NCBI GenBank assembly: GCA_965203905.1
Contig: CBDBDQ010000005.1
Span: 2,304,001-2,368,000 of the forward strand
Length of the DNA: 64,000 bases
Reading direction: 5' to 3'
Source: Spirochaetia bacterium
Lineage (GTDB): Bacteria; Spirochaetota; Spirochaetia; SZUA-6; Bin103
Shown piece after piece: positions 944 to 17,616 of this stretch; the first letter of the stretch is position 1, and each line of letters starts with the position of its first letter. The notes beneath the pieces were generated by a model. That model had not been told where the DNA came from. It saw only the letters and a program-made list of their open reading frames with translations, and searched no databases. The position numbers were made by a program, and so were the translations under genes.

Positions 944-1726
944 ATGAGTTCGATGAGATTTGAGGGCAAGGTCGCGCTGATAACCGGCGGCGGGTCCGGT
1001 ATCGGCCGCGCCACGGCGGTGGCGTTTGCCCGCGACGGCGCGCGCGTGGCCCTGGCCGACGCCAACCTGGCGGGGGCCGAAGAGACGGCGCACCTGGTTG
1101 CGGCTGCCGGCGGGCAGGCCATGGCACTGCACACCGACGTCGCCGACCCGGCCGCGGTCGAGGCGATGGCGCAGGCAGTGGTCGACCGGTACGGCCGCAT
1201 CGATTGTGCCTTCAACGCCGCCGGTGTGGGTGGCGAGGGCAAGACAGTCACCGAGCTGTCGTGGGAGCGCTGGCAGCGAACCATCGGCATCAATCTGAGC
1301 GGCGTGTTCCTTTGTATGCAGCAGGAGCTGCGCCACATGGTGGCCGCCGGGGGCGGTGCCATCTGCAACGTGGCCTCGATCTATGGCCTGACCGGCGGCG
1401 GCGCCGGCGGTGTCACGGGCGAACGGCAGCCGGCCTACAACGCCAGCAAGCATGGGGTGGTCGGCCTGACCAAATCAGCCGCCCTCGACTACGCCCAGGC
1501 CGGCGTCCGGATCAACGCCGTGTGCCCCGGCCACATCGAGACGCCGATGACGCACTACTACGCCGAGCACCCCGAGGCAAAGCGGCGCCTGCTGCGCAGG
1601 TATGCGGGCGGTCGCATGGGCCAACCCGATGAGGTCGCCGCCGCGGCGCTGTGGCTGTGTTCGGACGCCGCCTCGTTCGTTACGGGCACCACGATGGCGG
1701 TTGACGGCGGCTTTCTGGCTCAGTAG
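944..1726 (+). CDS. SDR family oxidoreductase
   Basis: TGGGSGIG, NAAG and YNASK motifs. Confidence 0.95.
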   Translation: MSSMRFEGKVALITGGGSGIGRATAVAFARDGARVALADANLAGAEETAHLVAAAGGQAMALHTDVADPAAVEAMAQAVVDRYGRIDCAFNAAGVGGEGKTVTELSWERWQRTIGINLSGVFLCMQQELRHMVAAGGGAICNVASIYGLTGGGAGGVTGERQPAYNASKHGVVGLTKSAALDYAQAGVRINAVCPGHIETPMTHYYAEHPEAKRRLLRRYAGGRMGQPDEVAAAALWLCSDAASFVTGTTMAVDGGFLAQ

Positions 1727-1749
1727 CAGGCGCAATCGGGCATTTCAGC

Positions 1750-1835
1750 GCTGCCTGGATATGTGGTTTCATCCGGGCGACATCCACCGGCCCCTCGGCG
1801 CGGGTGTGACTGCGTTGCCGTTCGCCGACCTGTAG
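1750..1835 (+). pseudogene. C-terminal scrap of a DUF4143/AAA ATPase
   Basis: LPGYVV / HPGDIHRPLGAGVTALPFADL* across a frameshift, resembling DUF4143 ATPase C-termini. Confidence 0.5.
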
Positions 1836-1913
1836 TCCGGGCGGGCCGTAGCCCCTCAGTGATCACTTGAGATTCTGCACCTGCATGCCGTTGTGCACGT
1901 GGATACCCGACTT

Positions 1914-1949
1914 TTACTCGATCCAGGCGGAGCCATCGACCAGGATCAC
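1914..1949 (-). pseudogene. vapC (PIN toxin) stub, 11 codons
   Basis: GTG overlaps the antitoxin stop (GTGA); reads MILVDGSAWIE*, the typical VapC N-terminus. Confidence 0.75.
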
Positions 1950-2152
1950 GGTTGGCGACGCAACTGCGCAAGCGCCTCCTGGTCCAGCTCAAGGTCCAAC
2001 CGCCCCGCGCGGCTCAGCGCCGCGTTGCGCCTCCAGGCCTTGACCGCCTCCCGAAGAGCCAACTCGATCGTTTCTCGCTTCGTGGACGTACGCAGCGCTT
2101 GCCGGGCCTCTTCGATCAGGTGGTTGTCAATCGTAACAGTTATGCGCCCCAT
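1946..2152 (-). CDS. VapB-family antitoxin
   Basis: MGRITVTIDNHLIEEARQALRTSTKRETIELALRE RHH-type antitoxin pattern. Confidence 0.8.
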   Translation of the reverse strand: MGRITVTIDNHLIEEARQALRTSTKRETIELALREAVKAWRRNAALSRAGRLDLELDQEALAQLRRQP

Positions 2153-2259
2153 CGGCATCATCAAGACATACACCAGCGATCTACGCCAACACAGACCCCT
2201 GCTGCGCTCCCGTACGCGGCGGATCTCGGCCGCGATCGCGTCGTTGTTCTTCCGGCGCG

Positions 2260-2334
2260 TCAGAGGCGGCCGACGCTGCCGCACAGCCGGGGGTCGAGCA
2301 GGTCGCGCAGCGCGTCGCCGAACATGTTGATGCT
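2260..2334 (-). repeat. Isolated 75 bp copy of the ABC permease C 3' end
   Basis: Matches 3184-3258 (3 mismatches) and 13278-13352; encodes SINMFGDALRDLLDPRLCGSVGRL*. Confidence 0.95.
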
Positions 2335-2434
2335 TGTGCGGCCTTGAACGCTTCGCCGTTAGCCATCATATTGGAAAGAGGGATGCCGAACGTTCCGGCC
2401 AGCCACCCAGGAACCGGCAACCCATAGCGGAGCA

Positions 2435-2686
2435 ATGGCTCAAGTAAGATTGGAACTACCGGACGCGGTTTGTGCCCTGCTGCAGTGTGCGCCCGGAACC
2501 CTTGACAAGGAGCTGCGACTGGCTGCTGCCGTCCAGTGGTATCAGCAGGGGCGCATATCGCAAGAGTGGGCGGCCCGGATCGCGGGAATGGATCGCACGG
2601 ATTTCATCCTGACACTTTCGCAAATGGGAGAGGACTCATTTCAGGTAGATTTCGACGACTTGGACCGCGAACTCACCCGTGGCTGA
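2435..2686 (+). CDS. UPF0175 family antitoxin
   Basis: ELRLAAAVQWYQQGRISQEWAARIAGMDRTDF motif; overlaps the PIN gene. Confidence 0.85.
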   Translation: MAQVRLELPDAVCALLQCAPGTLDKELRLAAAVQWYQQGRISQEWAARIAGMDRTDFILTLSQMGEDSFQVDFDDLDRELTRG

Positions 2687-3164
2687 TCGGGCAATAATCA
2701 GCGCGTCACCCCTGATCTTTTTTTCGCGCAGCAATCATTTGCAACTGCTTCGGACGTTCGCCGACGAGTTCTGGGTACCTGAACCGGTCGCGAACGAGGT
2801 TCTCCGCCGGGGCACGCGGGATGTCAGTGCTCGTGCCATCCATGACTCAGAGTGGCTGACCGTCCATCCGGCGGCCACGATTCCCGCGGCCATCGCTGCG
2901 TGGCGGTTGGGAGCCGGCGAAGCGAGCGTTCTGGCGCTGGCCGTCGAACATCCGGGAACCGAGGCGATAGTTGACGATCTGGCCGGCAGACGGTGTGCCG
3001 CCAGCCTGAATATCCCGGTTCGCGGAACCCTGGGAATCGTACTCGTCGCCAAGCGACGAGGGCTCATCCCGAAAGCTCGGCCCGTCATCGAGGAAATGGT
3101 GATCGCTGGTCTTCATCTCTCGCGACAGGTGATGGATGAAGCTCTACGGCGAGTGGACGAATAG
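2679..3164 (+). CDS. DUF3368 PIN-domain protein (toxin partner)
   Basis: ASPLIF...VPEPVANE...LGAGEASVLALA...DDLAGRRCA...GTLGIV. Confidence 0.85.
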   Translation: MADRAIISASPLIFFSRSNHLQLLRTFADEFWVPEPVANEVLRRGTRDVSARAIHDSEWLTVHPAATIPAAIAAWRLGAGEASVLALAVEHPGTEAIVDDLAGRRCAASLNIPVRGTLGIVLVAKRRGLIPKARPVIEEMVIAGLHLSRQVMDEALRRVDE

Positions 3165-3183
3165 GTATGGCTGCCGGCGGCGG

Positions 3184-4122
3184 TCAGAGGCGGCCGACGC
3201 TGCCGCGCAGCCTCGGGTCGAGCAGGTCGCGCAGCGCGTCGCCGAACATGTTGATGCTGTAGACCACGATGGTCAGGCACAGGCCCGGCCAGATCGCCAG
3301 CCGCGGCGCCATCTCCATGTACTGGCGCCCTTCCCGGCTCAGCATCCCGCCCCAGCTCGGCACCCCGGGCGGCAGACCGAACCCCAGAAAGCTCAAGGAC
3401 GCCTCTGCCACGATGATGCCACCGATGGTGATCGAGAAGATCACGATGATGGGCGCCATGATGTTGGGCAGCACGTGCCGCCGCAGGGTCCCGGAGATGC
3501 CCTCGCCAATCGCCTGCGCGGCCTGGAAGTAGTCGTTCTCCTTGATCCCGATCACCGCGCCGCGCACCACCCGCGAGTTGGTGATGCCGGACGATACCCC
3601 CAGAATCACGATTATCTGCAGCAGACCCTGTCCCGCGATGGACATGATCGTCAGCAACAGCAACAGACCCGGGAACGACATCCAGGCATCGACGAACCGC
3701 TGCACCAAGAGGTCCAGTTTGCCGCCGATGAACCCGGCGGTGCCGCCGATCAGCACCGCGACCACCACGTGCAGCGTGGTCGCCGCCAGGCCGACGAACA
3801 GCGAGATGCGCGCCCCGAAGATGAGCCGGCTCAGGAAGTCGCGTCCGAGCTGGTCGGTGCCCAGCGGATACTCGCCCGATGGCCCTTGCAGCCGGTCGGC
3901 CAGCGTCATCTGGTTGGGATCGTGCCCCGCCAGGGACGATGCGAAGATGCTGACCAGCACCAGCGCCAGCAACACCACCCCCCCGAACGCACCCAGGGGC
4001 TGCTCCTTGATGAACCGTCGCGGCCACCCGCCCAAAAAAAACCGGCGCTCCACGCGCTTGGTCGCGGCGGCTGTCCGTTCGGCTGCTCGCTCTTCCGTCA
4101 CTCGTTCACCCACCGGTGCCAT
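3184..4122 (-). CDS. Peptide/nickel ABC transporter permease (DppC/OppC-like), copy 1
   Basis: LGTDQLGRD, RHVLPN and EASLSFLGFG motifs; TGATG overlap with upstream permease. Confidence 0.95.
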   Translation of the reverse strand: MAPVGERVTEERAAERTAAATKRVERRFFLGGWPRRFIKEQPLGAFGGVVLLALVLVSIFASSLAGHDPNQMTLADRLQGPSGEYPLGTDQLGRDFLSRLIFGARISLFVGLAATTLHVVVAVLIGGTAGFIGGKLDLLVQRFVDAWMSFPGLLLLLTIMSIAGQGLLQIIVILGVSSGITNSRVVRGAVIGIKENDYFQAAQAIGEGISGTLRRHVLPNIMAPIIVIFSITIGGIIVAEASLSFLGFGLPPGVPSWGGMLSREGRQYMEMAPRLAIWPGLCLTIVVYSINMFGDALRDLLDPRLRGSVGRL

Positions 4123-5159: not shown

Positions 5160-6944
5160 CTAGAAGCCCATCTCCCGCTTCAGATCCTGGTCGATCCAGA
5201 CCCGAGTCATAACGGTAGAATAGTGGCCATTCTTGGACAGACTGACCTCACCGTTGTAACCCTTGACCCACGGCTGCGCGACGTTGAACTGTGGGCTCAG
5301 TGGACCGGTAAGCGTCCACTGCAGTTCCAGCAGGCGCAGATTGACCGCCTTTGCCCACCGATTGGACTCCTCGAGCGTGGCAGCCGTGCTGGCGCGTTCC
5401 CAGGATTCATCAACCTCCGCGTCGCTCCCATTGGCCCCGTTCCAAATATGTCCCGTGGTGAATCTCGCAATGCCATTCCGCGGTTCATACGTGATAGCCG
5501 AGACCGACATGAGCATCCCGTCCGACGTATTGTCTCTCGTTAGCGCAGTGGATTGCGTAGCGTCCACCGTATGGATGGCGACTTCCACGCCAATCTCACG
5601 CCAGTAGTTGGCGATCAGTTCCGCGTAGCTCATATCGGCGCGAATATCGTAGTCCAAACGGGTCTCGAAGCCATCGGGATAGCCCGCCTCGGCCAGAAGC
5701 TGCTTCGCCCCTTCCGGGTCATACCGGTAGTATGGCTTGATCTCTTCGGGCCACTCTTCGAATGGCGTGCCGACGCCCATCTTGGAATTTGCCATCACTC
5801 CGTTCGGAGTCGGATTGCCGAAACCGCTGAAGAAAGTCTCGTTGATCGTCTCCAGATCCAGCGCCATCTGCATCGCCCGGCGCACGCGGACGTCGTTGAA
5901 GGGCGGGTTCTGCACGTTGTTGAAGATGAACCCGGTGCCGGCCCGAAACTCGAAGTTCCACATGTTGATCTCGGGATTCCTCTCCTGCAGGCTCTTCAAC
6001 TGATCGATCGACCTGATTTGAGAGTCGCCGGCAGTACCCAGCACATCGATCTTGCCCGAGCGCAGCGCCGCCAGCCGCGCCGCCATATTGGGCAGGATGA
6101 CGGCGTTGATCTCATCGACGTAGGGCAAGCGGTTCTGCGGAAACTTCTCATCGAACCCCCAGTAGTCGGAAACCCTGGTCCATTTCATGGAGGCGCCTTC
6201 GACCACGTCCGCGAGTTCCATCGGTCCCGTGCCAACCAGGTTCCGCCAATCCGTGATGTCGCCGTGTTCCCTGATCACCTCCGGCGGGTAGACCCAGGAA
6301 ACCCACTCGTCAAAAACCCTGGGCAGGGCTTCGACGTCCGGCCTCGACAGCTTGAAGACGACCGTGCGGTCGTCGGTGGCCGTGACCGATTCCAGGAATT
6401 CCTCTACCCCACCGGCCACGGTGCTGGCTTCGGTGAAGCCGCTGCCCAGCCCATAGAGCCGGTGGTAGTTGAATTCGACGTCGCTGGCGGTCAGCTCCCG
6501 ACCGTTCATCGGCGCCTTGTCGTGCCAGTGAACGCCGGAGCGGATGTGGGCGATGATCGTGGTCGCGTCGGGCGTCTCCCAGCGTTCCGCCAGCGCCCCG
6601 GTGAACACGGACCAGGGCAGGTCGTAGGTCCGCAGGTCGTTTACGCTCCGGTCGTACGCCCAATCCACGATGACCAGCTTCTCGACCACCTCGCTGACGT
6701 AGTGGGTGGCCCAGCCGCCGATGAACCAGGCATCCGTATGCTCGCCATAGTTGGGCCGGCCATAGGTGACGCTCCCGCCGTACTGCGGCGCCTCCACCAT
6801 CTCGCCGGTGGATGGGTCGAGCACCATCTCTTTTTCCATCGCCGCGGCCGGCTCCTCGTCTGCCGCAGCCGCCCAGAGGCCGGTTGCGGCCAAGCTGAGC
6901 ACGAGCACAAACACCAAGGTGTGTGCACCTCTTGAAAGAGTCAT
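5160..6944 (-). CDS. ABC transporter solute-binding protein, family 5, copy 1
   Basis: GGAGG RBS before ATG 6944; signal peptide; LAERWE, VGTGP, DVRVRRAMQMALD and AKQLLAEAGYPDG. Confidence 0.95.
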   Translation of the reverse strand: MTLSRGAHTLVFVLVLSLAATGLWAAAADEEPAAAMEKEMVLDPSTGEMVEAPQYGGSVTYGRPNYGEHTDAWFIGGWATHYVSEVVEKLVIVDWAYDRSVNDLRTYDLPWSVFTGALAERWETPDATTIIAHIRSGVHWHDKAPMNGRELTASDVEFNYHRLYGLGSGFTEASTVAGGVEEFLESVTATDDRTVVFKLSRPDVEALPRVFDEWVSWVYPPEVIREHGDITDWRNLVGTGPMELADVVEGASMKWTRVSDYWGFDEKFPQNRLPYVDEINAVILPNMAARLAALRSGKIDVLGTAGDSQIRSIDQLKSLQERNPEINMWNFEFRAGTGFIFNNVQNPPFNDVRVRRAMQMALDLETINETFFSGFGNPTPNGVMANSKMGVGTPFEEWPEEIKPYYRYDPEGAKQLLAEAGYPDGFETRLDYDIRADMSYAELIANYWREIGVEVAIHTVDATQSTALTRDNTSDGMLMSVSAITYEPRNGIARFTTGHIWNGANGSDAEVDESWERASTAATLEESNRWAKAVNLRLLELQWTLTGPLSPQFNVAQPWVKGYNGEVSLSKNGHYSTVMTRVWIDQDLKREMGF

Positions 6945-6984
6945 ATCGATCTCTCCTCCATAGTCCGATGTTGAGAGTTCTGCC

Positions 6985-7325
6985 GGCGAGTTGCCCTTCG
7001 CTGCCACTCTCGCGCCCGCAACGCAGGCGGCCAGACAGAGAGGGCAATCTCTGGTGGTCACGCGCGCGGCATGAGCGTCACGAACTCAGGCCGCGCGCGT
7101 GGTGCGGTTCTTTGAGTATCAGCTTGCAGCTCCCTGTTGCACGGATTTGCGGAGTTCGACGCCGAGCGCGAGGCCGCGAGGCCGCGCGCTCGGCGCGCGC
7201 AGTGTGGCGGTTGTCCCGGTAGTTCACGGAGTGGGCTGGTAAGTGACGGAGTGCTGCCGCAGGCGCAGGGCGGGCGTACACGGAGGTGCGGCGCACGCCG
7301 CCCGGTTGGCCGAAGCGGTTAGTTA
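6985..7325 (-). ncRNA. Candidate structured 5' leader RNA, copy 1 (interrupted upstream by IS110)
   Basis: Non-coding, highly similar to 17070-17375; perfect 12 bp stem 7059-7070/7090-7101 and stem 6988-6997/7041-7051. Confidence 0.5.
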
Positions 7326-7551
7326 TTTCTCGGGTGAATGGAGAGTCAGGTGTTGTGCCCGCCCCGGGGGGGACTCCTCACCATTTGTCAAGGCGAGTTT
7401 TCGGTCGCTGGAGCATGAGGGCAGGTACCTTGCGGCCACCCGGAGGGATTAGATAAAACGGCGGCGGTAAAGGGGGAGGGGTGCGGGGAGGGGGTGTCGT
7501 GGCGCTGTGGATATGTGGATAAGTCCGAGGCGTCGCCGAGTGGTCAGTGGC

Positions 7552-7596
7552 TGCGTATTCCGGTGACAAGCCACCCATTCCGGGAAAGAGCCACCG
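7552..7596. mobile_element. IS21-like terminal sequence
   Basis: TGCGTATTCC start followed by internal repeats ATTCCGGnnAnnAGCCACC x2, downstream of istB. Confidence 0.55.
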
Positions 7597-7922
7597 GGGA
7601 GTGGTCCGATCCTGTGACAGTGAGTACAGCGGGGTGGCCTTTTTGAATCAATCTGACGGTGCGTGCAAAGGGAGTTCGGAGCGGGTAACGGCGTTCCGGC
7701 CAGAGTGTCCCTGGGTGGCCTGTTCGGGGGTGCCTGGGTACACCAACTTGGCTGAGGAAACTGCATCGACGGTGCTCGGATCTGCGTAAGCGACGCCGTG
7801 ATGTGCCGGAGGGTGCCACGTCGTCGACGGAGCGCCGGTGTCGGATTGTTGTTCGAGGTTCCGGGAGCAGGCGTGGCGAATCGCGCGGGGCCAGCGGTGC
7901 GGGTATAGCGCTGGGAACGGCG

Positions 7923-8810
7923 TTGACGGGCACTATTCTGATTTTCGGGGGTACTTGAGGTACCCCCGCAGGTTTGGAAGGGCCTCTGAGGGCCGCTGAG
8001 CGGCCGACTCTGACGCCGAGCGGCCCGCTGACGGCCAGGCGGCGGTGCCTGACGACCGTGGAGCGGGCCGAATGCCGAGATCGTGGGCGCGATGGTGCGC
8101 ATGCCGCCGCCGCTGCCGCGACCTCGACCGGTGGTCCGGCGGCCGGCAGCGGCAGTCGGCTCGGAACAGCAACCCGACGACTGCACGCAGGTTGCCTCGA
8201 GTGCAGTCCATGCGGACGCCGGAGCGGCGGACCGCGCGCGGTCGGCGACGCTGAGAAAGGGCGTTTGACGGGCACTATTCTGATTTCCGGGGGTACCCTG
8301 GAGTACCCCCGCGGGTTCGGAAGGCCCTCTGAGGGCCGCTGAGCGGCCGACTCTGACGCCGAGCGGCCCGCTGGCGGTCAGGCGGCGTCGCCTGACGACC
8401 GTGGAGGAATACGAATGCCCGAGGTCGCGGGCGCGACGGTGCGCATGCCGCCGCCGCTGGCGCGAACTCGACCGGTGGTCCGGCGGCCGGCAGCGGCAGT
8501 CGGCTCGGAACAGCAACCCGACGACTGCACGCGGGTTGCCTCGAGTGCAGTCCATGCGGACGCCGGAGCGGCGGACCGCGCGCAGTCGGCGACGCTGAGA
8601 AAGGCGTTTGACGGGCACTATTCTGATTTCCGGGGGTACCCTGGAGTACCCCCGCGGGTTCGGAAGGCCCTCTGAGAGCCGCTGAGAGACCGACTCTGAC
8701 GCCGAGGGGTCTGCTGACGGCCAGGCAGCGGTGCCTGACGGCCATGGAGGGGTCCGAATGCCGAGATCGCCGGCGCGACGGTGCGCATGCCGCCGCCGCC
8801 GCGAACTCGT
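7923..8810. repeat. Tandem array of ~343 bp hairpin-rich units (about 2.6 copies)
   Basis: ttgacgggcactattctg recurs at 7923, 8265 and 8608. Confidence 0.95.
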
Positions 8811-8878
8811 GGTGGCAACCCCGGAGCGCCGCGCGTAGCAGTAACGCGCCCGCCGCGCTCGGGGCGCCGGGCGGGGCG

Positions 8879-9639
8879 CTAGCCCAGCCGCTCGGTTGTA
8901 TCCCGGTGGGCACGCTCGGCATACAGCTTGCGCACCGAATTTCCTTCCAGGTTGATGCGGTGGGCGCCGTGCACGATGCGATCACAGATCGCGTCGGCGA
9001 TGGTGGGCTCGCCGATCACCTCATGCCAGGACGACACCGGCAGCTGCCAGACCATCAGGGTCGAGGCTCGACCGTGGCGATCTTCGAGCATCTCCAGCCG
9101 CCACAGCCGCGCCAGTGCATCCAGCGGCTCCAGGGCAAAGTCGTCGATTAGATGATGATCAGTGCCTGCTTGCTGATCTTCTCCAGTTCGCGCACGTAGC
9201 TGCCGTCAGCCTTGGCCAGACGCAGTTGCCCGAACAGCCGCGAGGACGCATGGTAGCCGACCCGGAACCCGCGCAGACACGCCTGATGGCCCAGCGCGGA
9301 GGCGAGGAAGCTCTTCCCGGAACCGCATTTGCCGGTGATGATCAGGTCCTGGTGGTGCTGCACCCAGCGGCAGTCGGCCAGGCGCAGCAACTGGTTCTGG
9401 TCCAGGTTGCGGCGCAGCGAGAAGTCTACCTCCTCGATGGCGGCCGGGTAGCGAAAGCGGGCCGCCTTCAGCAGCCGCCGCAGCCGCCGCGCATGGCTCC
9501 CACTCGGCATCCACCAAGTGGGCCAGCAACTCGTCGGCGCTGCACTGGCCTGGGTCTCCAGGCTGGTGCGCAGCGCCCGCGCCATGCCGTGCAGGCGCAT
9601 CTGGTCGAGTTGGTCGAGGGTGGCCTGGTTATTGGTCAT
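8879..9639 (-). pseudogene. istB: IS21 helper ATPase istB, frameshifted; istA absent
   Basis: MRLHGMA, GKCGSGKS Walker A, DDFALE and TIADAICDRIVHGAHRINLEGNSVRK spread over several frames. Confidence 0.9.
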
Positions 9640-9748
9640 CGTCGCGATAGCCCTCCGAGGACCAAGTCTCGGCGTATCCGGTGGTGGCAGGCTACCGGAT
9701 CGAACCCGTTGTTCGCGCTATCACAGTCTCATCTGACCTGCCCCTCGA

Positions 9749-10978
9749 TCAGGCGGCTGTCGAGCGGCTAACCCGGTGCTCGGGATCATACGGCGTTCGA
9801 TTACGCAACATCGCGCAGGCCACCTTCAGCAGCCGGTCCGAGACGGTTCGCAGGGCGCGGGCATGGCGCTGGCCGCGCCCGCGCAGCTCGGCATACCGCT
9901 CCCGACTCGCCGCATCGTGCTGGATCGCCACCCGCGCCCAGTGATACATCGCTTCCCGCAGCCGCTTGTTGCACGCACGTCGCATCATCACCACGCAGCT
10001 CTTCCCCGACCGCCAAGTCACCGGCGCCACTCCGGTCAGGATGCGCAACGTGTGATAGTCTCGTGCTGCCAGGGCCTGCGTGGCCTCTGCGAGCAGCGTG
10101 GCGAGCACGATCCGACCGATTCCGGGCATGGAGCGTAGGATGGACACGTCACGCTGCTCTTCTGGTTCTGCCGAGTCGTCGTTGGCCACGATTTCGGCGA
10201 CTAATTCGTCCAGACGAGCGTGCGCCTGGTCGATCAGCTCGGTCACCGGTCGCAGCCGCACTATGACGCTCTCGATGTGCGCCTTCGCCGCCGCTGTCGT
10301 GCCGCGGCTTACCTGCAGCGGCTGCTGCCGCAGGATGTGCAGCACTCCGGCAGCATTGTGGCGTCGGATGCGGTTTCTCTTCAGGATCGCCGCGATCGAC
10401 GCCTTGCGGATCCGCGCTGCCTCCGCCGGCGTCGGTGCCTTCTCCCACAGCTCCAGGAACCAGGCGGCACCGAGATCACCGCCCAACTCCAGCATCTGCG
10501 GATAGTAGCGGCGCAGTTGCTCGCGCATGCGATTGATCAGCCGGTTGCGTTCCTGCTTCAACTCCTCCCTCATGCGCGACCATTCCCGCAACTCGATCAC
10601 CTCCGCTGCCTCCACCTGCAACTGGCGAAAACTACGCCGATCGGTGCGCAGCGAGTCTGCCAACACCCGCGCGTCGCGGCGGTCGTCCTTGGCCCCGGCC
10701 GCCGTAAACCGGTCGCGAAATCGATCCAGCTGCTTGGGATTGATCGCGTACACCTGCACCTCGCGCTGCAGCAGCATCTCCACCACCGCTCCATGCGGCA
10801 TTTCGATCGCCGCGTGCACGCTCGCCAAGTGCCCGCCGGACAGCTCTTCCAACCATGCGCACAGGTCGGCGATGCCGGCGCCGCTGTGCGCCACCTGGCG
10901 CTCCCCGATTACCTTGCCGTCTCCTTCGAGCACGCACACCTGATGCTGTTCGGTCGCCCAATCGACTCCCACGAACAC
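9749..10978 (-). CDS. IS110 family transposase/recombinase
   Basis: FVGVDWA DEDD N-terminus, GAKDDRRDA, SMPGIG and GVAPVTWRSG catalytic Ser region. Confidence 0.95.
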   Translation of the reverse strand: MFVGVDWATEQHQVCVLEGDGKVIGERQVAHSGAGIADLCAWLEELSGGHLASVHAAIEMPHGAVVEMLLQREVQVYAINPKQLDRFRDRFTAAGAKDDRRDARVLADSLRTDRRSFRQLQVEAAEVIELREWSRMREELKQERNRLINRMREQLRRYYPQMLELGGDLGAAWFLELWEKAPTPAEAARIRKASIAAILKRNRIRRHNAAGVLHILRQQPLQVSRGTTAAAKAHIESVIVRLRPVTELIDQAHARLDELVAEIVANDDSAEPEEQRDVSILRSMPGIGRIVLATLLAEATQALAARDYHTLRILTGVAPVTWRSGKSCVVMMRRACNKRLREAMYHWARVAIQHDAASRERYAELRGRGQRHARALRTVSDRLLKVACAMLRNRTPYDPEHRVSRSTAA

Positions 10979-10995
10979 TGTTCGTCGCCTGCCAT

Positions 10996-11225
10996 ACTAC
11001 CCCCGAGAATCGTCTGTAGCTCGGCTGCCACGATGTCGTTTCCGCCCCTGTACTGGTGCTCCCGGCCTCCGGTGCTCCTGCAACCTCACGCCTTGGCACT
11101 ACTCCTCACTGGGTATCCATCGCGGCTCTCCCACCGGGGCACACGTCCCCCCCCCAGGTGCTCGCTGGCGCTCGGGGGGCCAAGGTGCTCCCGGCAGGTT
11201 GCCTTGCCCGCCCGGGATTCTAGCA
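10996..11225 (-). ncRNA. Putative IS110 bridge RNA
   Basis: Non-coding left end with GAGCACC x4; contains C6 and G9 runs plus GTGAGGAGT and GTACAGGGG, which match the target and donor junctions. Confidence 0.7.
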
Positions 11226-11367
11226 GTCCCCGACGAACTATCGAACTATCTACTGTTTAAAAGGGTACAGGGGGGGTAGAACGCACCGGTTGCGCGGTCT
11301 TCAACCGGCAGCCGCGCTGACGGGATCCTCAATCGGTGCACATGCGCTCCCAATCCCACGTCGGCAA

Positions 11368-11396
11368 AGTGTCACACACGTACGGCCACCTGTCAA
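11368..11396 (-). promoter_or_regulatory. Sigma70-like promoter of ABC operon copy 1 (displaced)
   Basis: TTGACA-17-GACACT preceded by TG; same arrangement as 17455-17483. Confidence 0.65.
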
Positions 11397-11423
11397 ACCT
11401 GTCAATGAACAGTAGTCGGTGGT

Positions 11424-11555
11424 CTATTGCATTCGGAGCACCTTGATGACGCGGTCGCGTTCAAGGACTTGGTACACGAGGCGGTGCTGGATGTTGATCC
11501 GGCGCGAATTCGCTCCGGTCAGATCGCCAATCAGTTTCTCGAACGGTGGCGGGTT
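11424..11555 (-). pseudogene. C-terminal half of a YoeB/Txe toxin
   Basis: NPPPFEKLIGDLTGANSRRINIQHRLVYQVLERDRVIKVLRMQ*; no N-terminus and no antitoxin. Confidence 0.85.
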
Positions 11556-11599
11556 GCAGCCGGGAACGGTTCCCGACGGCCGCGGCGCTGGGCAGTCCC

Positions 11600-12448
11600 C
11601 TACCAGGTGACGTAGTGCGGCGACGGGCCGAGTCGCTGGAGGTGCAGGGGCAGCAGCTCGTTCGGCAGCCCGTGGATCCGGTCTGCGGCGGCGATCCTGG
11701 TGCAGATCACGCTGTTGCGGTACTTGCGCGCCTGCTTCAGATCAGTCGAGCGGACCTGGCTGGTCGGCAGAATGCGCCCATGGACCTCCATGTCGTTGAT
11801 CGCGGTGAGGTACCCCCCATGCACCAGGTAGCGGTCGAACGCTTCGATCAAGGCCGCGGCGTCGCCACGTGAGTCGGCGATGCCCTTGAGATCGAGGTAC
11901 TCCGCGAACGACAGCGGGTAGAGGTGAAAGTCGACGCGCGGTGCCCGATCTCGGCGTCCCGGGAGACGGGTGCGCGCTTCCCGGATAATGACGGAATCGG
12001 AGCCGGTCAGAACCAGAACCACGTCGTCGAGCAACCCCGCGTCCGCGAGGAACTTGACACCGCGGTCCCAGTCGCGGATGTAGGTGACCGCGTCCACGAT
12101 CAGGTAGGCCGGCAGCGCCGGTGACCGGTCCGGGGCAACCCGCGTGAGCAGCGAAACCAGCGCGTGGTGGTCGTCGATAAGCTCCCCGGTCAGATAGAGA
12201 ATGCGCTGTGGCTGCACGCCTGCGTGCAACAGGTCGGCCATCCACTGCTTGAGGACCGTCGACTTGCCCACCCGACGACCACCGGTGATCGAGTACACCC
12301 CCGGCTGATCAACGGGGAGGTGTGCCAGGATGGGGTAGCGGTAGGCGATGGGCAGCCGTTGCAGTTCCCGGAGTTGCGGATCCATGGTGCGGAACAACGC
12401 CGGATCGTCGAGATGCAGGTTGTGAGGGGCAAAGCGCGGGTCGACCAC
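11600..12448 (-). pseudogene. AAA_14/DUF4143 ATPase, apparently internally deleted
   Basis: GGRRVGKS Walker A, LTGS, YPLSFAEY and HGGY, then jumps to a C-terminal-like segment; Walker B reads DA rather than DE. Confidence 0.7.
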
Positions 12449-15244: not shown

Positions 15245-17029
15245 TTAGAAGCCCATCTCCCGCTTCAGATCCTGGTCGACCCAGACGCGGGTCAAGAGCG
15301 TAGAGAAATTGCCTTCTCCGATTCGGATCTCGCCGTTATAGCCCTTGATCCAAGGCTGGGCGACGTTGAACTGCGCGCCTACCGGACCGGTGATAATCCA
15401 GTGCTGTTCTGCGATGCGCATATTCGCCGCCTTGAGCAACCGATTCTGCTCTTCAATAGTGGGAGCCGCGTTGGCGGCATTCCAGAGAGCGTCATATTCC
15501 GAATCGTCATGTGCGACCGGGTTCCAGATGGACTCGGTGGTGAAGGAACGCGATTGACCGATCGCGTCATACGTGAGACCTGATGTCCAGGCGACCAATC
15601 CGTCTGAACTATTCTCATGCAAGAACACCGTGTGTTGCGTACCGTCGATAGGCTGGATCTCGACTTCCACGCCAATCTCACGCCAGTAGTTCGCAGCCAG
15701 CTCCGCGTAGTTGAGATCGAACCGATTCAGGTAGTCCAGACGGGTCGTGAAGCCATCGGGATAGCCTGCTTCAGCCAGCAGTTGCTTCGCCCCTTCCGGG
15801 TCATACCGGTAGTATGGCTTGATCTCTTCAGGCCACTCTTCGAATGGCGTGCCAATCCCCAGCTTGGCATTGTTCAAGAACGCCTGCGGCGTCGGATCGG
15901 CCATACCGCTGAAGAAGGTCGCACTGATCGTCTCCAGATCCAGCGCCATCTGCATGGCCCGTCGCACGCGGATGTCATTGAATGGCGGTTTGTTAATATT
16001 GTTGGGCGCAAATGCGTGTTCGCTGCGGAACTCGTAGGTCCACGTATTGATCTCGGGATTGGTCTGGTGCAGGCTCTTTACCTGATCGATAGACCTCAAT
16101 TGAGAGTCGCCGACGGTCCCCAGCACATCCACCTTCCCCGACCGCAGCGCGGCCAGACGCGCCGCAGGATCCGTCATGATGAGGGCGTTTATCTCGTCGA
16201 CGTAGGGCAAGCGGTTGTGCGGGAACTTCTCATCGAACCCCCAGTAGTCGGGAGCCCGGGTCCACTTCAGAGAGGCGCCTTCGACCACGTCCGTCAGCTC
16301 CATCGGCCCCGTGCCGACCAGGTTCCTCCAGTCCTTGATGTCGCCGTGTTCCTGGATGACCTCCGGAGGGTAGATCACGGATGTCCACCAGTCGAAGATT
16401 TTCTGCAGGGCGTTAACGTCCGGGTTCGTCAGCTTGAAGACAACCGTGCTAGCGTCGGTCGCCGTCACGGACTCAACGATTTTTTCGATCCCAGCGGCGC
16501 CGGTGCCGGCTTCGGTGAAGCCGCTGCCCAGCCCATAGATACGATGAAAGTTGAACTCGACATCGCTGGCGGTCAGCTCCCGGCCGTTCATCGGTGCCTT
16601 GTCGTGCCAGTGAACGCCCTGGCGGATGTGGACGACGATCGTGGTCGCGTCGGGTGTGTCCCAGCTTTCCGCCAACGCCCCTCGGAGGACAGAAAAGGGC
16701 TGATCCCAGCTCCGCCAGTCATATTCGTTCCTGTCTATCGCCCAGTCCCCGATGACGAGCTTCTCGATCACCTCGCTGATCCAGTGGTGGGCGAAGCCGC
16801 CAATGTACCAGACGTCCGTATGCTCACCCAGGTTGGCCCGGGCATAGGTGATGGTTCCGCCATAGCGCGGGGCCTCCACCATCTCGCCGGTGGATGGGTC
16901 GAGCACCATCTCCTTCTCCATCGCCGCGGCCGGCTCCTCTTCCCCGGCCGGACTGGCCCAGATGCCGGTCGCGACCAGGGCAAACACGAGCACAGCCACG
17001 AAGGGGTGTGCAATTCTTGGAAGATTCAT
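15245..17029 (-). CDS. ABC solute-binding protein, family 5, copy 2
   Basis: Paralog of 5160-6944; GGAGAG RBS; signal peptide. Confidence 0.95.
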   Translation of the reverse strand: MNLPRIAHPFVAVLVFALVATGIWASPAGEEEPAAAMEKEMVLDPSTGEMVEAPRYGGTITYARANLGEHTDVWYIGGFAHHWISEVIEKLVIGDWAIDRNEYDWRSWDQPFSVLRGALAESWDTPDATTIVVHIRQGVHWHDKAPMNGRELTASDVEFNFHRIYGLGSGFTEAGTGAAGIEKIVESVTATDASTVVFKLTNPDVNALQKIFDWWTSVIYPPEVIQEHGDIKDWRNLVGTGPMELTDVVEGASLKWTRAPDYWGFDEKFPHNRLPYVDEINALIMTDPAARLAALRSGKVDVLGTVGDSQLRSIDQVKSLHQTNPEINTWTYEFRSEHAFAPNNINKPPFNDIRVRRAMQMALDLETISATFFSGMADPTPQAFLNNAKLGIGTPFEEWPEEIKPYYRYDPEGAKQLLAEAGYPDGFTTRLDYLNRFDLNYAELAANYWREIGVEVEIQPIDGTQHTVFLHENSSDGLVAWTSGLTYDAIGQSRSFTTESIWNPVAHDDSEYDALWNAANAAPTIEEQNRLLKAANMRIAEQHWIITGPVGAQFNVAQPWIKGYNGEIRIGEGNFSTLLTRVWVDQDLKREMGF

Positions 17030-17069
17030 GCTGATCTCTCCAGACTCTTGATTGTGAGAGCGCTGTCGG

Positions 17070-17450
17070 GGCGAGTTGCCTTTCGCTGCCACTCTCGCGC
17101 CCGCAACGCAGGCGGCCAGACAGCGACGGCAATCTCTGGTGGTCACGCGCGCGGCATGACCGTCATGAACTCAGGCCGCGCGCGTGGTGCGGTTCTTTGA
17201 GTATCAGCTTGCACCTCCGTGTTGCCCGGATTTCCGGAGTTCGACGCCGAGCGCGCGGCCGCGAAGCACGCGCAGGTCGGCGGCGGTCCCGGTAGTTGAC
17301 GGAGTGGTCTGGTATGTGACGGAGTGATGCCGAAGGCGCGACGCACGCCGCCCGGTCAGTTGAGCGTTAGTTGCCAATTGCACCATCTTCAGCCGCAAGC
17401 CGCGCTGAAGGGGTTGGTTACCGGTGCACATGCGCTCGCATCCCCCTTCG
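17070..17450 (-). ncRNA. Candidate structured 5' leader RNA, copy 2 (intact)
   Basis: About 420 nt between promoter and ATG; stems conserved with copy 1. Confidence 0.5.
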
Positions 17451-17454
17451 GCAG

Positions 17455-17483
17455 AGTGTCACACCCGTGTGGCCACCTGTCAA
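17455..17483 (-). promoter_or_regulatory. Sigma70-like promoter of ABC operon copy 2
   Basis: TTGACA-17-GACACT preceded by TG. Confidence 0.65.
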
Positions 17484-17616
17484 ATGACACGGAATCCCGT
17501 CCCGTCCTGCAGAGCCATCTCGATAAGATGTCCTGCTGCGGGTCGGCGCGGCGGCAGCGACTACGGCTGTAATGCGGAACCCGAGATAACGCGGAGTCAC
17601 ACGACTGGGAGGGACC

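Follow-up and report, generated by a model that had tools for sequence, protein, structure and literature searches.

A C-homopolymer as the probable target of an IS110-family insertion sequence and its candidate bridge RNA in a Spirochaetia bacterium

How can a recombinase that is guided by a bridge RNA address a target made of a single repeated letter? The question is raised by a 3,897-bp element in a stretch of 64,000 nucleotides from a Spirochaetia bacterium (contig CBDBDQ010000005.1, positions 2,304,001 to 2,368,000; hereafter the window), where an IS110-family transposase gene and a long leader are enclosed between two runs of C on the minus strand. The element at 7373–11269 is very probably an insertion sequence (IS) that works like IS621 of Escherichia coli (PDB 8wt6) and carries its own bridge RNA aimed at C-runs. 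It is an element of the IS621 kind with the known mechanism unchanged, and the unusual part is the homopolymer target. Its interest is that of a natural bridge recombinase whose guides are readable from the raw sequence, and the reading is backed by an empty site and by dozens of independent insertions.

The sense and order of the guides and the handshake rules used below come from excerpts of the two IS621 reports (PMC11208160, PMC11208158). As described there, the 5' guides read in the sense of the left target and the left donor, and the 3' guides complement the core together with the right target or right donor and are followed by a 2-nt handshake. All four guides of IS621 include the core dinucleotide, according to the excerpted text of PMC11208160.

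An IS110-family element between two C-runs

The transposase covers the whole of the DEDD_Tnp_IS110 profile (Pfam PF01548; E-value 3.3e-38, residues 3–160, profile positions 1–155 of 155) and also matches Transposase_20 (PF02371; 8.6e-16), bearing out the assignment to the IS110 family that had been made in a preliminary description of the window. The nearest solved structures are those of ISCro4 (PDB 9t56; 2.5e-11) and of IS621 (phmmer E-value 4.5e-10, C-terminal part only), both of them distant relationships. The alignment with ISCro4, in which the likeness to that element consists, spans the N-terminal DEDD and the C-terminal Tnp domains. In it, ...WRSGKS... of the transposase aligns with ...YESGSS... 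of ISCro4, and acidic residues align too; we take these to be the catalytic acidic residues and the serine nucleophile, by analogy with IS621.

The minus-strand sequence of the left junction is TCTA-C7 (11276–11270)-TGTACCCT (11269–11262), and that of the right junction is TTGACA (7391–7386)-AATG-GTGAGGAGT (7381–7373)-C7 (7372–7366)-GGGG. The extent proposed in the preliminary description, 7366–11276, holds if both flanking C7 runs are counted in, and the motifs named there were all found on the minus strand at the coordinates given. Two of these motifs recur inside the element. GTGAGGAGT has two exact occurrences in the window, at 7373–7381 and 11101–11109, both on the minus strand (mean of 0.44 in shuffled windows, at least two copies in 9 of 100 shuffles), and CCCCTGTAC likewise has exactly two, at the left junction (11265–11273, minus strand) and at 11045–11053 on the plus strand, where it is GTACAGGGG in the RNA sense (mean of 0.32, at least two copies in 6 of 100 shuffles). 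Taken over the window these counts are only mildly unusual, but the placement of the copies is beyond chance, because in each case one copy lies exactly at an element end and the other within the 290-nt leader, at positions that also covary in relatives. C or G runs of at least 7 are scarce in the window, with 6 overlapping matches against 19.7 expected, and three of the four distinct runs of this length are the two element flanks and an internal G9.

The unoccupied site is present in a contig of the DNA metagenome run X4 (record 24, 435 nt, depth 10.8), one of the contigs of four runs that were placed on the window. It covers 7153–7369 and 11270–11499 with nothing between, so that 7369 is joined to 11270 with a skip of 3900 and three ambiguous letters, and the site reads TCTA-C11-GGGG with no TGT. 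The occupied site has C7 + C7 and the empty one C11, and two or three C's are shared, the exact number being uncertain in a homopolymer. The element therefore runs from TGTACCC to GAGGAGT, with a CC or CCC core and about 11–12 C's in the target run. The short core is present at both junctions and common to target and donor, and there is no long target duplication. The preliminary description had proposed a CC core, a target of about C12 and a search for the empty site, and the X4 contig supports the first two and supplies the third. The element flanks also adjoin directly in paralogous copies of the repeated leader sequence that surrounds the insertion. A search of 30 related genomes with the left flank returned upstream-gene matches and paralogous leader copies only, and no clean orthologous empty site.

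The same contig bears on the choice of the core. A core of GT, with C-run-T-GT-C-run as the target and ACCC...GAGGA as the element, had been favoured at first, since the paralogous locus L003 of the same genome reads C8-TGTA-C5-GGG and guide matches reach 2 nt past the core. GT is the only dinucleotide besides CC that is present at both junctions; with it, the left donor guide would be GTGAGGA+GT, which has the 7+2 nt layout of IS621, GGGGGGG+AC would complement GT+C7 exactly, and the RNA letters after GTGAGGAGT are not CC. However, the C11 of the X4 contig is unbroken and lacks TGT, and its skip is 3900 rather than 3894, on which ground this model was discarded. Moreover, a GT core would reduce the spacing between the -35 and -10 hexamers to 12 nt, whereas with a CC core GTACAGG fully complements the core plus TGTAC, and AC and GG fall at the handshake positions of IS621. 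We consider the GT core very improbable. Its target, CCCCCCTGTCCCC, with at most one mismatch gave eight matches in the own genome against five for the reversed control, none of them exact; one of the eight, at G000:C5:1610897, is an unrelated C6-TGTA-C4 site without an element.

Relatives occupy the same kind of site under the CC-core reading. In same-genus genomes, all 17 left junctions consist of C5–C12 followed by TGTACC (three of the 17 are the same loci as L033, L034 and L035), the left end is TGTACC(C/T)T in all 17 copies, and C4–C20 follows the right end in 10 of 11 cases; the eleventh continues as CC-TGTAC and then unrelated DNA. The right end of a 54%-identical relative (L041) is followed by C8. 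TGTACC also opens all ten elements that were aligned (TGTACCTC in L039). The proposed comparison with other copies thus returned the same ends and C-run targets.

These ends also argue against a second alternative, in which TGTAC belongs to the target, insertion takes place after C-run-TGTAC-CC, and sites of the form C-run-TGTAC-C-run are empty targets rather than scars. The paralogous locus L003, which reads C8-TGTAC-C4-GGG, and about nine more such sites in the leader repeats of the genus would fit this model. Nevertheless, TGTACC begins even those of the ten elements that are 45–57% identical and lie in unrelated flanks, and the sequence upstream of it differs throughout. Furthermore, the left guides end 2 nt into TGTAC and would therefore not reach such a core, the X4 empty site has no TGTAC, and in the pair L096/L128 the element is followed by C8 on the right, whereas in the empty copy no more than CC follows TGTAC. 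The model was rejected on these four grounds, and we give it hardly any credence.

When the two ends meet over the CC core, the -10-like hexamer of the left end comes to stand 17 nt after the TTGACA of the right end. The pair TTGACA-17-TACCCT noted in the preliminary description follows from this junction, and a -35-like hexamer is kept at 13–14 nt from the right end in seven of the seven right ends of relatives. Judged from these hexamers and their spacing, the joined ends of a circle may form a promoter.

A few junctions of other copies have particular arrangements. At L083/L097 (G005:C4, about 277350), a right end, C6 and a left end follow one another, giving two head-to-tail copies, as would be expected if a second copy had entered the C-run beside the first. 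The right ends at L104 and L106 (G005:C4) and at L102 (G001) are followed by very long C-runs (C20, C18, C11), which may reflect either tract expansion next to the element or assembly error. L138 (G000:C5:6861142–6861160) and L105 (G001:C1:1593786–1593804) are solo right-end remnants that have GAGC in place of GAGT, followed by CC-TG(TAC) and unrelated DNA, and they look like the relic of a joined or tandem junction. In the distant relative L044 (1600–1680), an inverted copy of the element's own left junction stands where the right end would be expected, as the reverse complement of TAACGCC-TGTACCCTTCTAGCAGC, which suggests an inversion or a head-to-head rearrangement.

Table 1. Positions in the window of the element, its flanks, its candidate bridge-RNA segments and its genes
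Feature	Position	Strand	Remarks
IS110-family element, TGTACCC...GGTGAGGAGT	7373..11269	-	3897 bp; empty-site skip of 3900 = element + 3 C
Left flank C7, left target half including one copy of the CC(C) core	11270..11276	-	Sequence, empty-site contig, junctions of relatives
Right flank C7, right target half	7366..7372	-	Sequence, empty-site contig, right ends of relatives
Conserved right end with -35-like TTGACA (7386-7391)	7373..7435	-	91% identical to the terminal 65 bp of the element in L033
TACCCT, -10-like hexamer	11262..11267	-	17 nt after right-end TTGACA once ends are joined over CC
Left end encoding the putative bridge RNA (target-binding, then donor-binding module)	10979..11269	-	Alignments with relatives, consensus folds, pair counts
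Target module, basal stem, 5' strand	11186..11198	-	12-pair helix, 6 pairs changed on both sides, 99.2% of cells paired
Target module, basal stem, 3' strand	11130..11141	-	Consensus fold, pair counts
Putative left target guide, UGG-CCCCCC	11174..11182	-	Sense of left target + core; only C6 (11174-11179) matches own flank
Putative right target guide, G9 (11147-11155) + AC	11145..11155	-	G9 = complement of core + right-flank C's; AC = complement of right-end GT, handshake position
Donor module, outer stem, 5' strand CCGCGAT	11119..11125	-	7 pairs, 5 changed on both sides
Donor module, outer stem, 3' strand AUCGUGG	11028..11034	-	Partner of the strand at 11119..11125
Donor module, inner stem, 5' strand GUGC	11096..11099	-	Partner GCAC at 11056-11059; 4 pairs, 1 compensatory
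Putative left donor guide, GTGAGGAGT	11101..11109	-	Same sequence as the final 9 nt of the right end
Putative right donor guide, GTACAGG + GG	11045..11053	-	Reverse complement of CC+TGTAC; GG = complement of the last two target C's, handshake position
Transposase/recombinase open reading frame	9749..10978	-	409 amino acids, GTG start at 10978; PF01548, PF02371
Damaged transposase start	10975..10995	-	CAGTG-TTC, one G short against CAG TGG TTC of relatives
IstB (IS21 helper ATPase) pseudogene in two pieces, without IstA	8879..9639	-	PF01695, 2e-28 and 3.1e-12; in-frame stop
Repeat of about 340 bp, about 2.6 tandem copies, with GGGTACCC palindromes	7909..8809	-	Self-match of 90.8% over 566 bp

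Guide segments and folding of the left end

Ten leaders were compared, comprising that of the window, three of close relatives and six of metagenome relatives at 45–57% protein identity. The target and donor modules were aligned separately, and covariation was set against 500 shuffles and against slid helices. In the target module, the 12-pair basal stem and two outer pairs (14 pairs) have 98.6% of cells paired, with six pairs changed on both sides; helices slid by 1–3 columns pair 38–56% of cells, and none of the 500 shuffles reached the covariation score. The two stems of the donor module (11 pairs) have 99.1% of cells paired and likewise six pairs changed on both sides, against 18–58% for slid helices and again 0 of 500 shuffles. 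All four guide segments lie between these covariation-supported stems, in the order and on the sides that the rules of IS621 predict.

The sequences of the segments follow the DNA that they face. In the window copy, GTGAGGAGT, GGGGGGGAC and GTACAGGGG (the last against the left junction) each match at 9 of 9 positions. The left target guides of relatives equal their own left flanks (TAACGCCTG, CTAACCCCTG, CGAACCC and ATCTTGTTC), with 9 of 9 positions in L033 (TGGCCCCCC), and their right target guides, read as reverse complements, correspond to the right flank of the same element (TAAAGTGG, GGATTGG); for the right target guide GCAAGTGG, the RNA of L039 was compared with the flank of L040. The cognate left-flank match is 7–10 nt long in seven of nine relatives and 6 nt in the window, compared with 3–7 nt between target groups. 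In contigs of other strains, G7 stands in place of G9. The left donor guide follows the right end of each relative (GTGAGGAGT, GTAGGAAGT or GTGGGGAGT), and GTACAG of the right donor guide is as invariant (10 of 10 leaders) as the left end TGTACC that it faces. The two letters after GTACAGG are GG in the window, where the target ends in CC, and AA in L039, where the left flank ends in TT before the core. The preliminary description had matched the guide segments to the flanks and ends of a single copy and had placed the target loop before the donor loop; the ten leaders agree on both points, as the loop segments change with the flanks and ends of each element and the modules stand in the order known from IS621.

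On this anatomy, a DEDD/serine recombinase would be guided by a bridge RNA from the 290-nt left end. In the target module, the 5' C6 would have the sense of the left target and core, and the 3' G9 would complement the core and the right target and be followed by AC for GT, aiming the element at a C-homopolymer of about 11–12 C with the crossover in CC(C). In the donor module, the 5' GTGAGGAGT would repeat the right end's final 9 nt, and the 3' GTACAGG + GG would complement CC+TGTAC and then the last two C's of the target, so that the module would recognise GAGGAGT-CC-TGTACCC, the joined ends of an excised circle. Joining would in addition bring TTGACA-17-TACCCT together upstream of the RNA. 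We infer that the chemistry of recombination, circle formation, promoter use and handshake pairing are those of IS621.

Several observations weigh against this account. The left target guide of the window matches its flank by six C's only and then has GAG where seven of ten copies have UG, and the left guide of L035 fails, its best match being 5 nt long and outside the guide position. The left donor guide stops before the CC core and continues with AG here and with variable letters in relatives; three guides can cover CC and the left donor guide does not, which is a difference of detail and not of kind from IS621. Matches that reach 2 nt past the core also fit a GT core. The empty site was seen in a single contig from a single run, and assemblies are not reliable as to the length of homopolymers. 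Among the contigs placed from the runs, no circle-junction joint was found, and an Rfam scan of 7000–11600 at E-values up to 1 gave no family matches. The minimum-energy fold of the window copy is weakly better than that of shuffles (z = -1.91; 7 of 200 shuffles as good) and pairs C6 with the G-run. In addition, the ATG used by the family (10995–10993) is out of frame in the window and runs into a stop, the long open reading frame starting at GTG 10978, and the element is single-copy in its own genome, where a search for copies otherwise found one transposase fragment and paralogues of the flanks. This fragment (L002 1501–1565, G000:C5:6561674–6561738) is a lone 65-nt piece that matches the 3' end of the transposase gene at 85% identity.

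The pairing of C6 with the G-run arises because the target has C on both sides of the core; a homopolymer target makes the two target guides complementary to each other and leaves their register ambiguous. In relatives with other targets, the corresponding positions are unpaired inside the covarying basal stem. The preliminary description had named guide segments lying in stems rather than loops as an observation that would speak against it, and such a stem is formally present in the fold of the window copy but not in the relatives with other targets. Its central claim, a natural bridge recombinase that targets C-homopolymers, stands as to the anatomy and the C-run targets, while the left guide of the window copy matches C6 only and its transposase start is damaged.

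The donor-binding part (11036–11130) is also covered by two 95-nt contigs of the metatranscriptome X16, for which DNA carry-over is possible and which show neither level nor strand.

Condition of the window copy and its cargo

The transposase genes of relatives start ATG...CAG TGG TTC GTG GGA, and the window copy is 1 nt shorter here than all four close relatives. Some contigs of the DNA runs X2, X3 and X4 carry an extra letter behind 10975, and the missing G may be either a true frameshift or a homopolymer error of the assembly. With 2.2 kb of junk cargo, the window copy may be impaired by this deletion. A stronger form of the same view accepts the anatomy and regards the copy as an immobile relic with a frameshift at codon 7, a bloated cargo and a degenerate left target guide. 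The deletion relative to all four close relatives, together with the presence of the letter in some contigs of three DNA runs, speaks for it, as do the single copy in the genome, the cargo that fills element positions 1530–3717, and GAG in place of UG in the guide. On the other hand, the reading frame is otherwise open for 409 amino acids from the GTG and keeps the first catalytic Asp, and the deletion sits in GG, where an assembly error may be its cause. The GAG variant is common to L033 and L074, which lie at other C-run sites, and is therefore compatible with past transposition. Cargo-bearing elements are moreover reported as active in the excerpted text of bioRxiv 10.64898/2026.08.14.744561. 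We judge an immobile relic to be a serious possibility at somewhat less than even chances.

The extent of the cargo is apparent from the L033 element, which is about 90% identical and shares with the window copy the first ~1529 bp, the last ~63 bp (91% identity) and a 64-bp island. The cargo amounts to about 2.2 kb here and 1.3 kb in L033, with different content. The arrangement of transposase and IstB is not an assembly artefact, since contigs of X2, X3 and X4 span the boundary. Units related to the ~340-bp repeat are found in L034 (1900–2300) and L035 (1770–2260), inverted relative to those of the window, and one contig of an RNA library lacks one repeat unit (skip of 343).

Within the cargo of the window, the in-frame stop of the IstB pseudogene falls inside a conserved LIIDD-type motif, and the repeat unit contains paired GGGTACCC palindromes and a TTGACGGG motif. 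The cargo of L033 includes a small open frame of about 67 codons (5697–5900).

Related systems and the leader repeats

Set against the excerpts of the IS621 reports (PMC11208160, PMC11208158), the window element has the same two-domain DEDD/Tnp recombinase, a bridge RNA encoded by the left end ahead of the gene, in which the target loop comes first and the donor loop second, the same guide senses, putative 2-nt handshake positions 3' of both 3' guides, a 2-nt core, and a -35-like element in the right end with a -10-like element in the left end. Unlike IS621 as described there, it has a core of CC(C) rather than CT, a homopolymer target, a left donor guide without the core, and a length of 3.9 kb with cargo; moreover, in seven of ten copies the left target guide reaches into the left end by 2 nt (UG). 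Extra DNA between the transposase gene and the right end, with cargo that differs between close relatives, is shared with the expanded IS110 elements described in the excerpted text of bioRxiv 10.64898/2026.08.14.744561, but the cargo here is a pseudogene and repeats instead of adaptive or resistance genes, and its size is modest. Like ISPpu9 and ISPpu10 of Pseudomonas putida (excerpts of PMC12288879 and bioRxiv 10.64898/2026.03.19.712850), the element enters one many-copy repeated intergenic sequence; the targets described there are REP-type or conserved intergenic sequences, whereas here the target is a homopolymer in a gene leader. In the literature that was searched, no paper joins the terms 'IS110', 'bridge RNA' and 'homopolymer', although ISfinder or the supplements of IS110 surveys may list such targets.

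For the IS621 model, a target made of C's alone is an extreme case, and two new C-runs are left behind by each insertion. The lineage therefore offers a ready means of testing how much information on register and flanks is required by a bridge RNA, and also whether a target loop that closes on itself slows or gates recombination.

The insertion site lies in a repeated leader of about 450 bp upstream of paralogous SBP_bac_5 genes for ABC substrate-binding proteins (5160–7061 and 15245–17146). Stretches of this repeat are window positions 7200–7372 with 11277–11420, window positions 17100–17520, and the loci L003, L007 and L064–L071. In the leader repeats of the own genome and of G001, G004, G005 and G006, a C-run followed by TGTA(C) and a second C-run occurs without an element. 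Such scar-like loci are L003 (own genome, about G000:C5:950035), L069/L123, L127, L131 and L135 (G005), L070, L128 and L132 (G004), L118 (G006) and L129 (G001), and two of them read TGTACCCTG. Of 22 non-element matches of CCCCCTGTAC that were examined, 5 continue with CCC or more, compared with about 1 expected from a rough composition estimate. One pair of loci is formed by L096 (G006), an element right end followed by C8, and L128 (G004), which reads C8-TGTACC without the element and has the same downstream flank.

The scar-like sites, in which the first 4–9 nt of the left end stand inside C-tracts, may be excision or deletion scars, and together with the tandem in G005 they may be footprints of register-slipped loss and re-entry. 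On a homopolymer the register would not be fixed, and the lineage may recombine one register in, since the left end reads TGTA-CCC. Excision would then leave footprints of 4–9 nt (TGTA, TGTAC or TGTACCCTG), and re-entry into the flanking C-runs would give tandems. This scenario, drawn from comparison of the sites, seems to us rather unlikely. If it is true, C-tracts in leaders of a family of transporter genes would be visibly remodelled by a bridge recombinase, and the lineage would present a natural case of scarred, register-slipped excision together with a target loop able to close on itself through C6 and the G-run. TGTA(C) remnants, if they are excision scars, would also bear on how IS110 elements leave a site.

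Leader copies across the genus have a hairpin CCGGTTG...CAACCGG, followed by a C-run of variable make-up, from C5 to C9 and including C9A7 and C9-T-C5.

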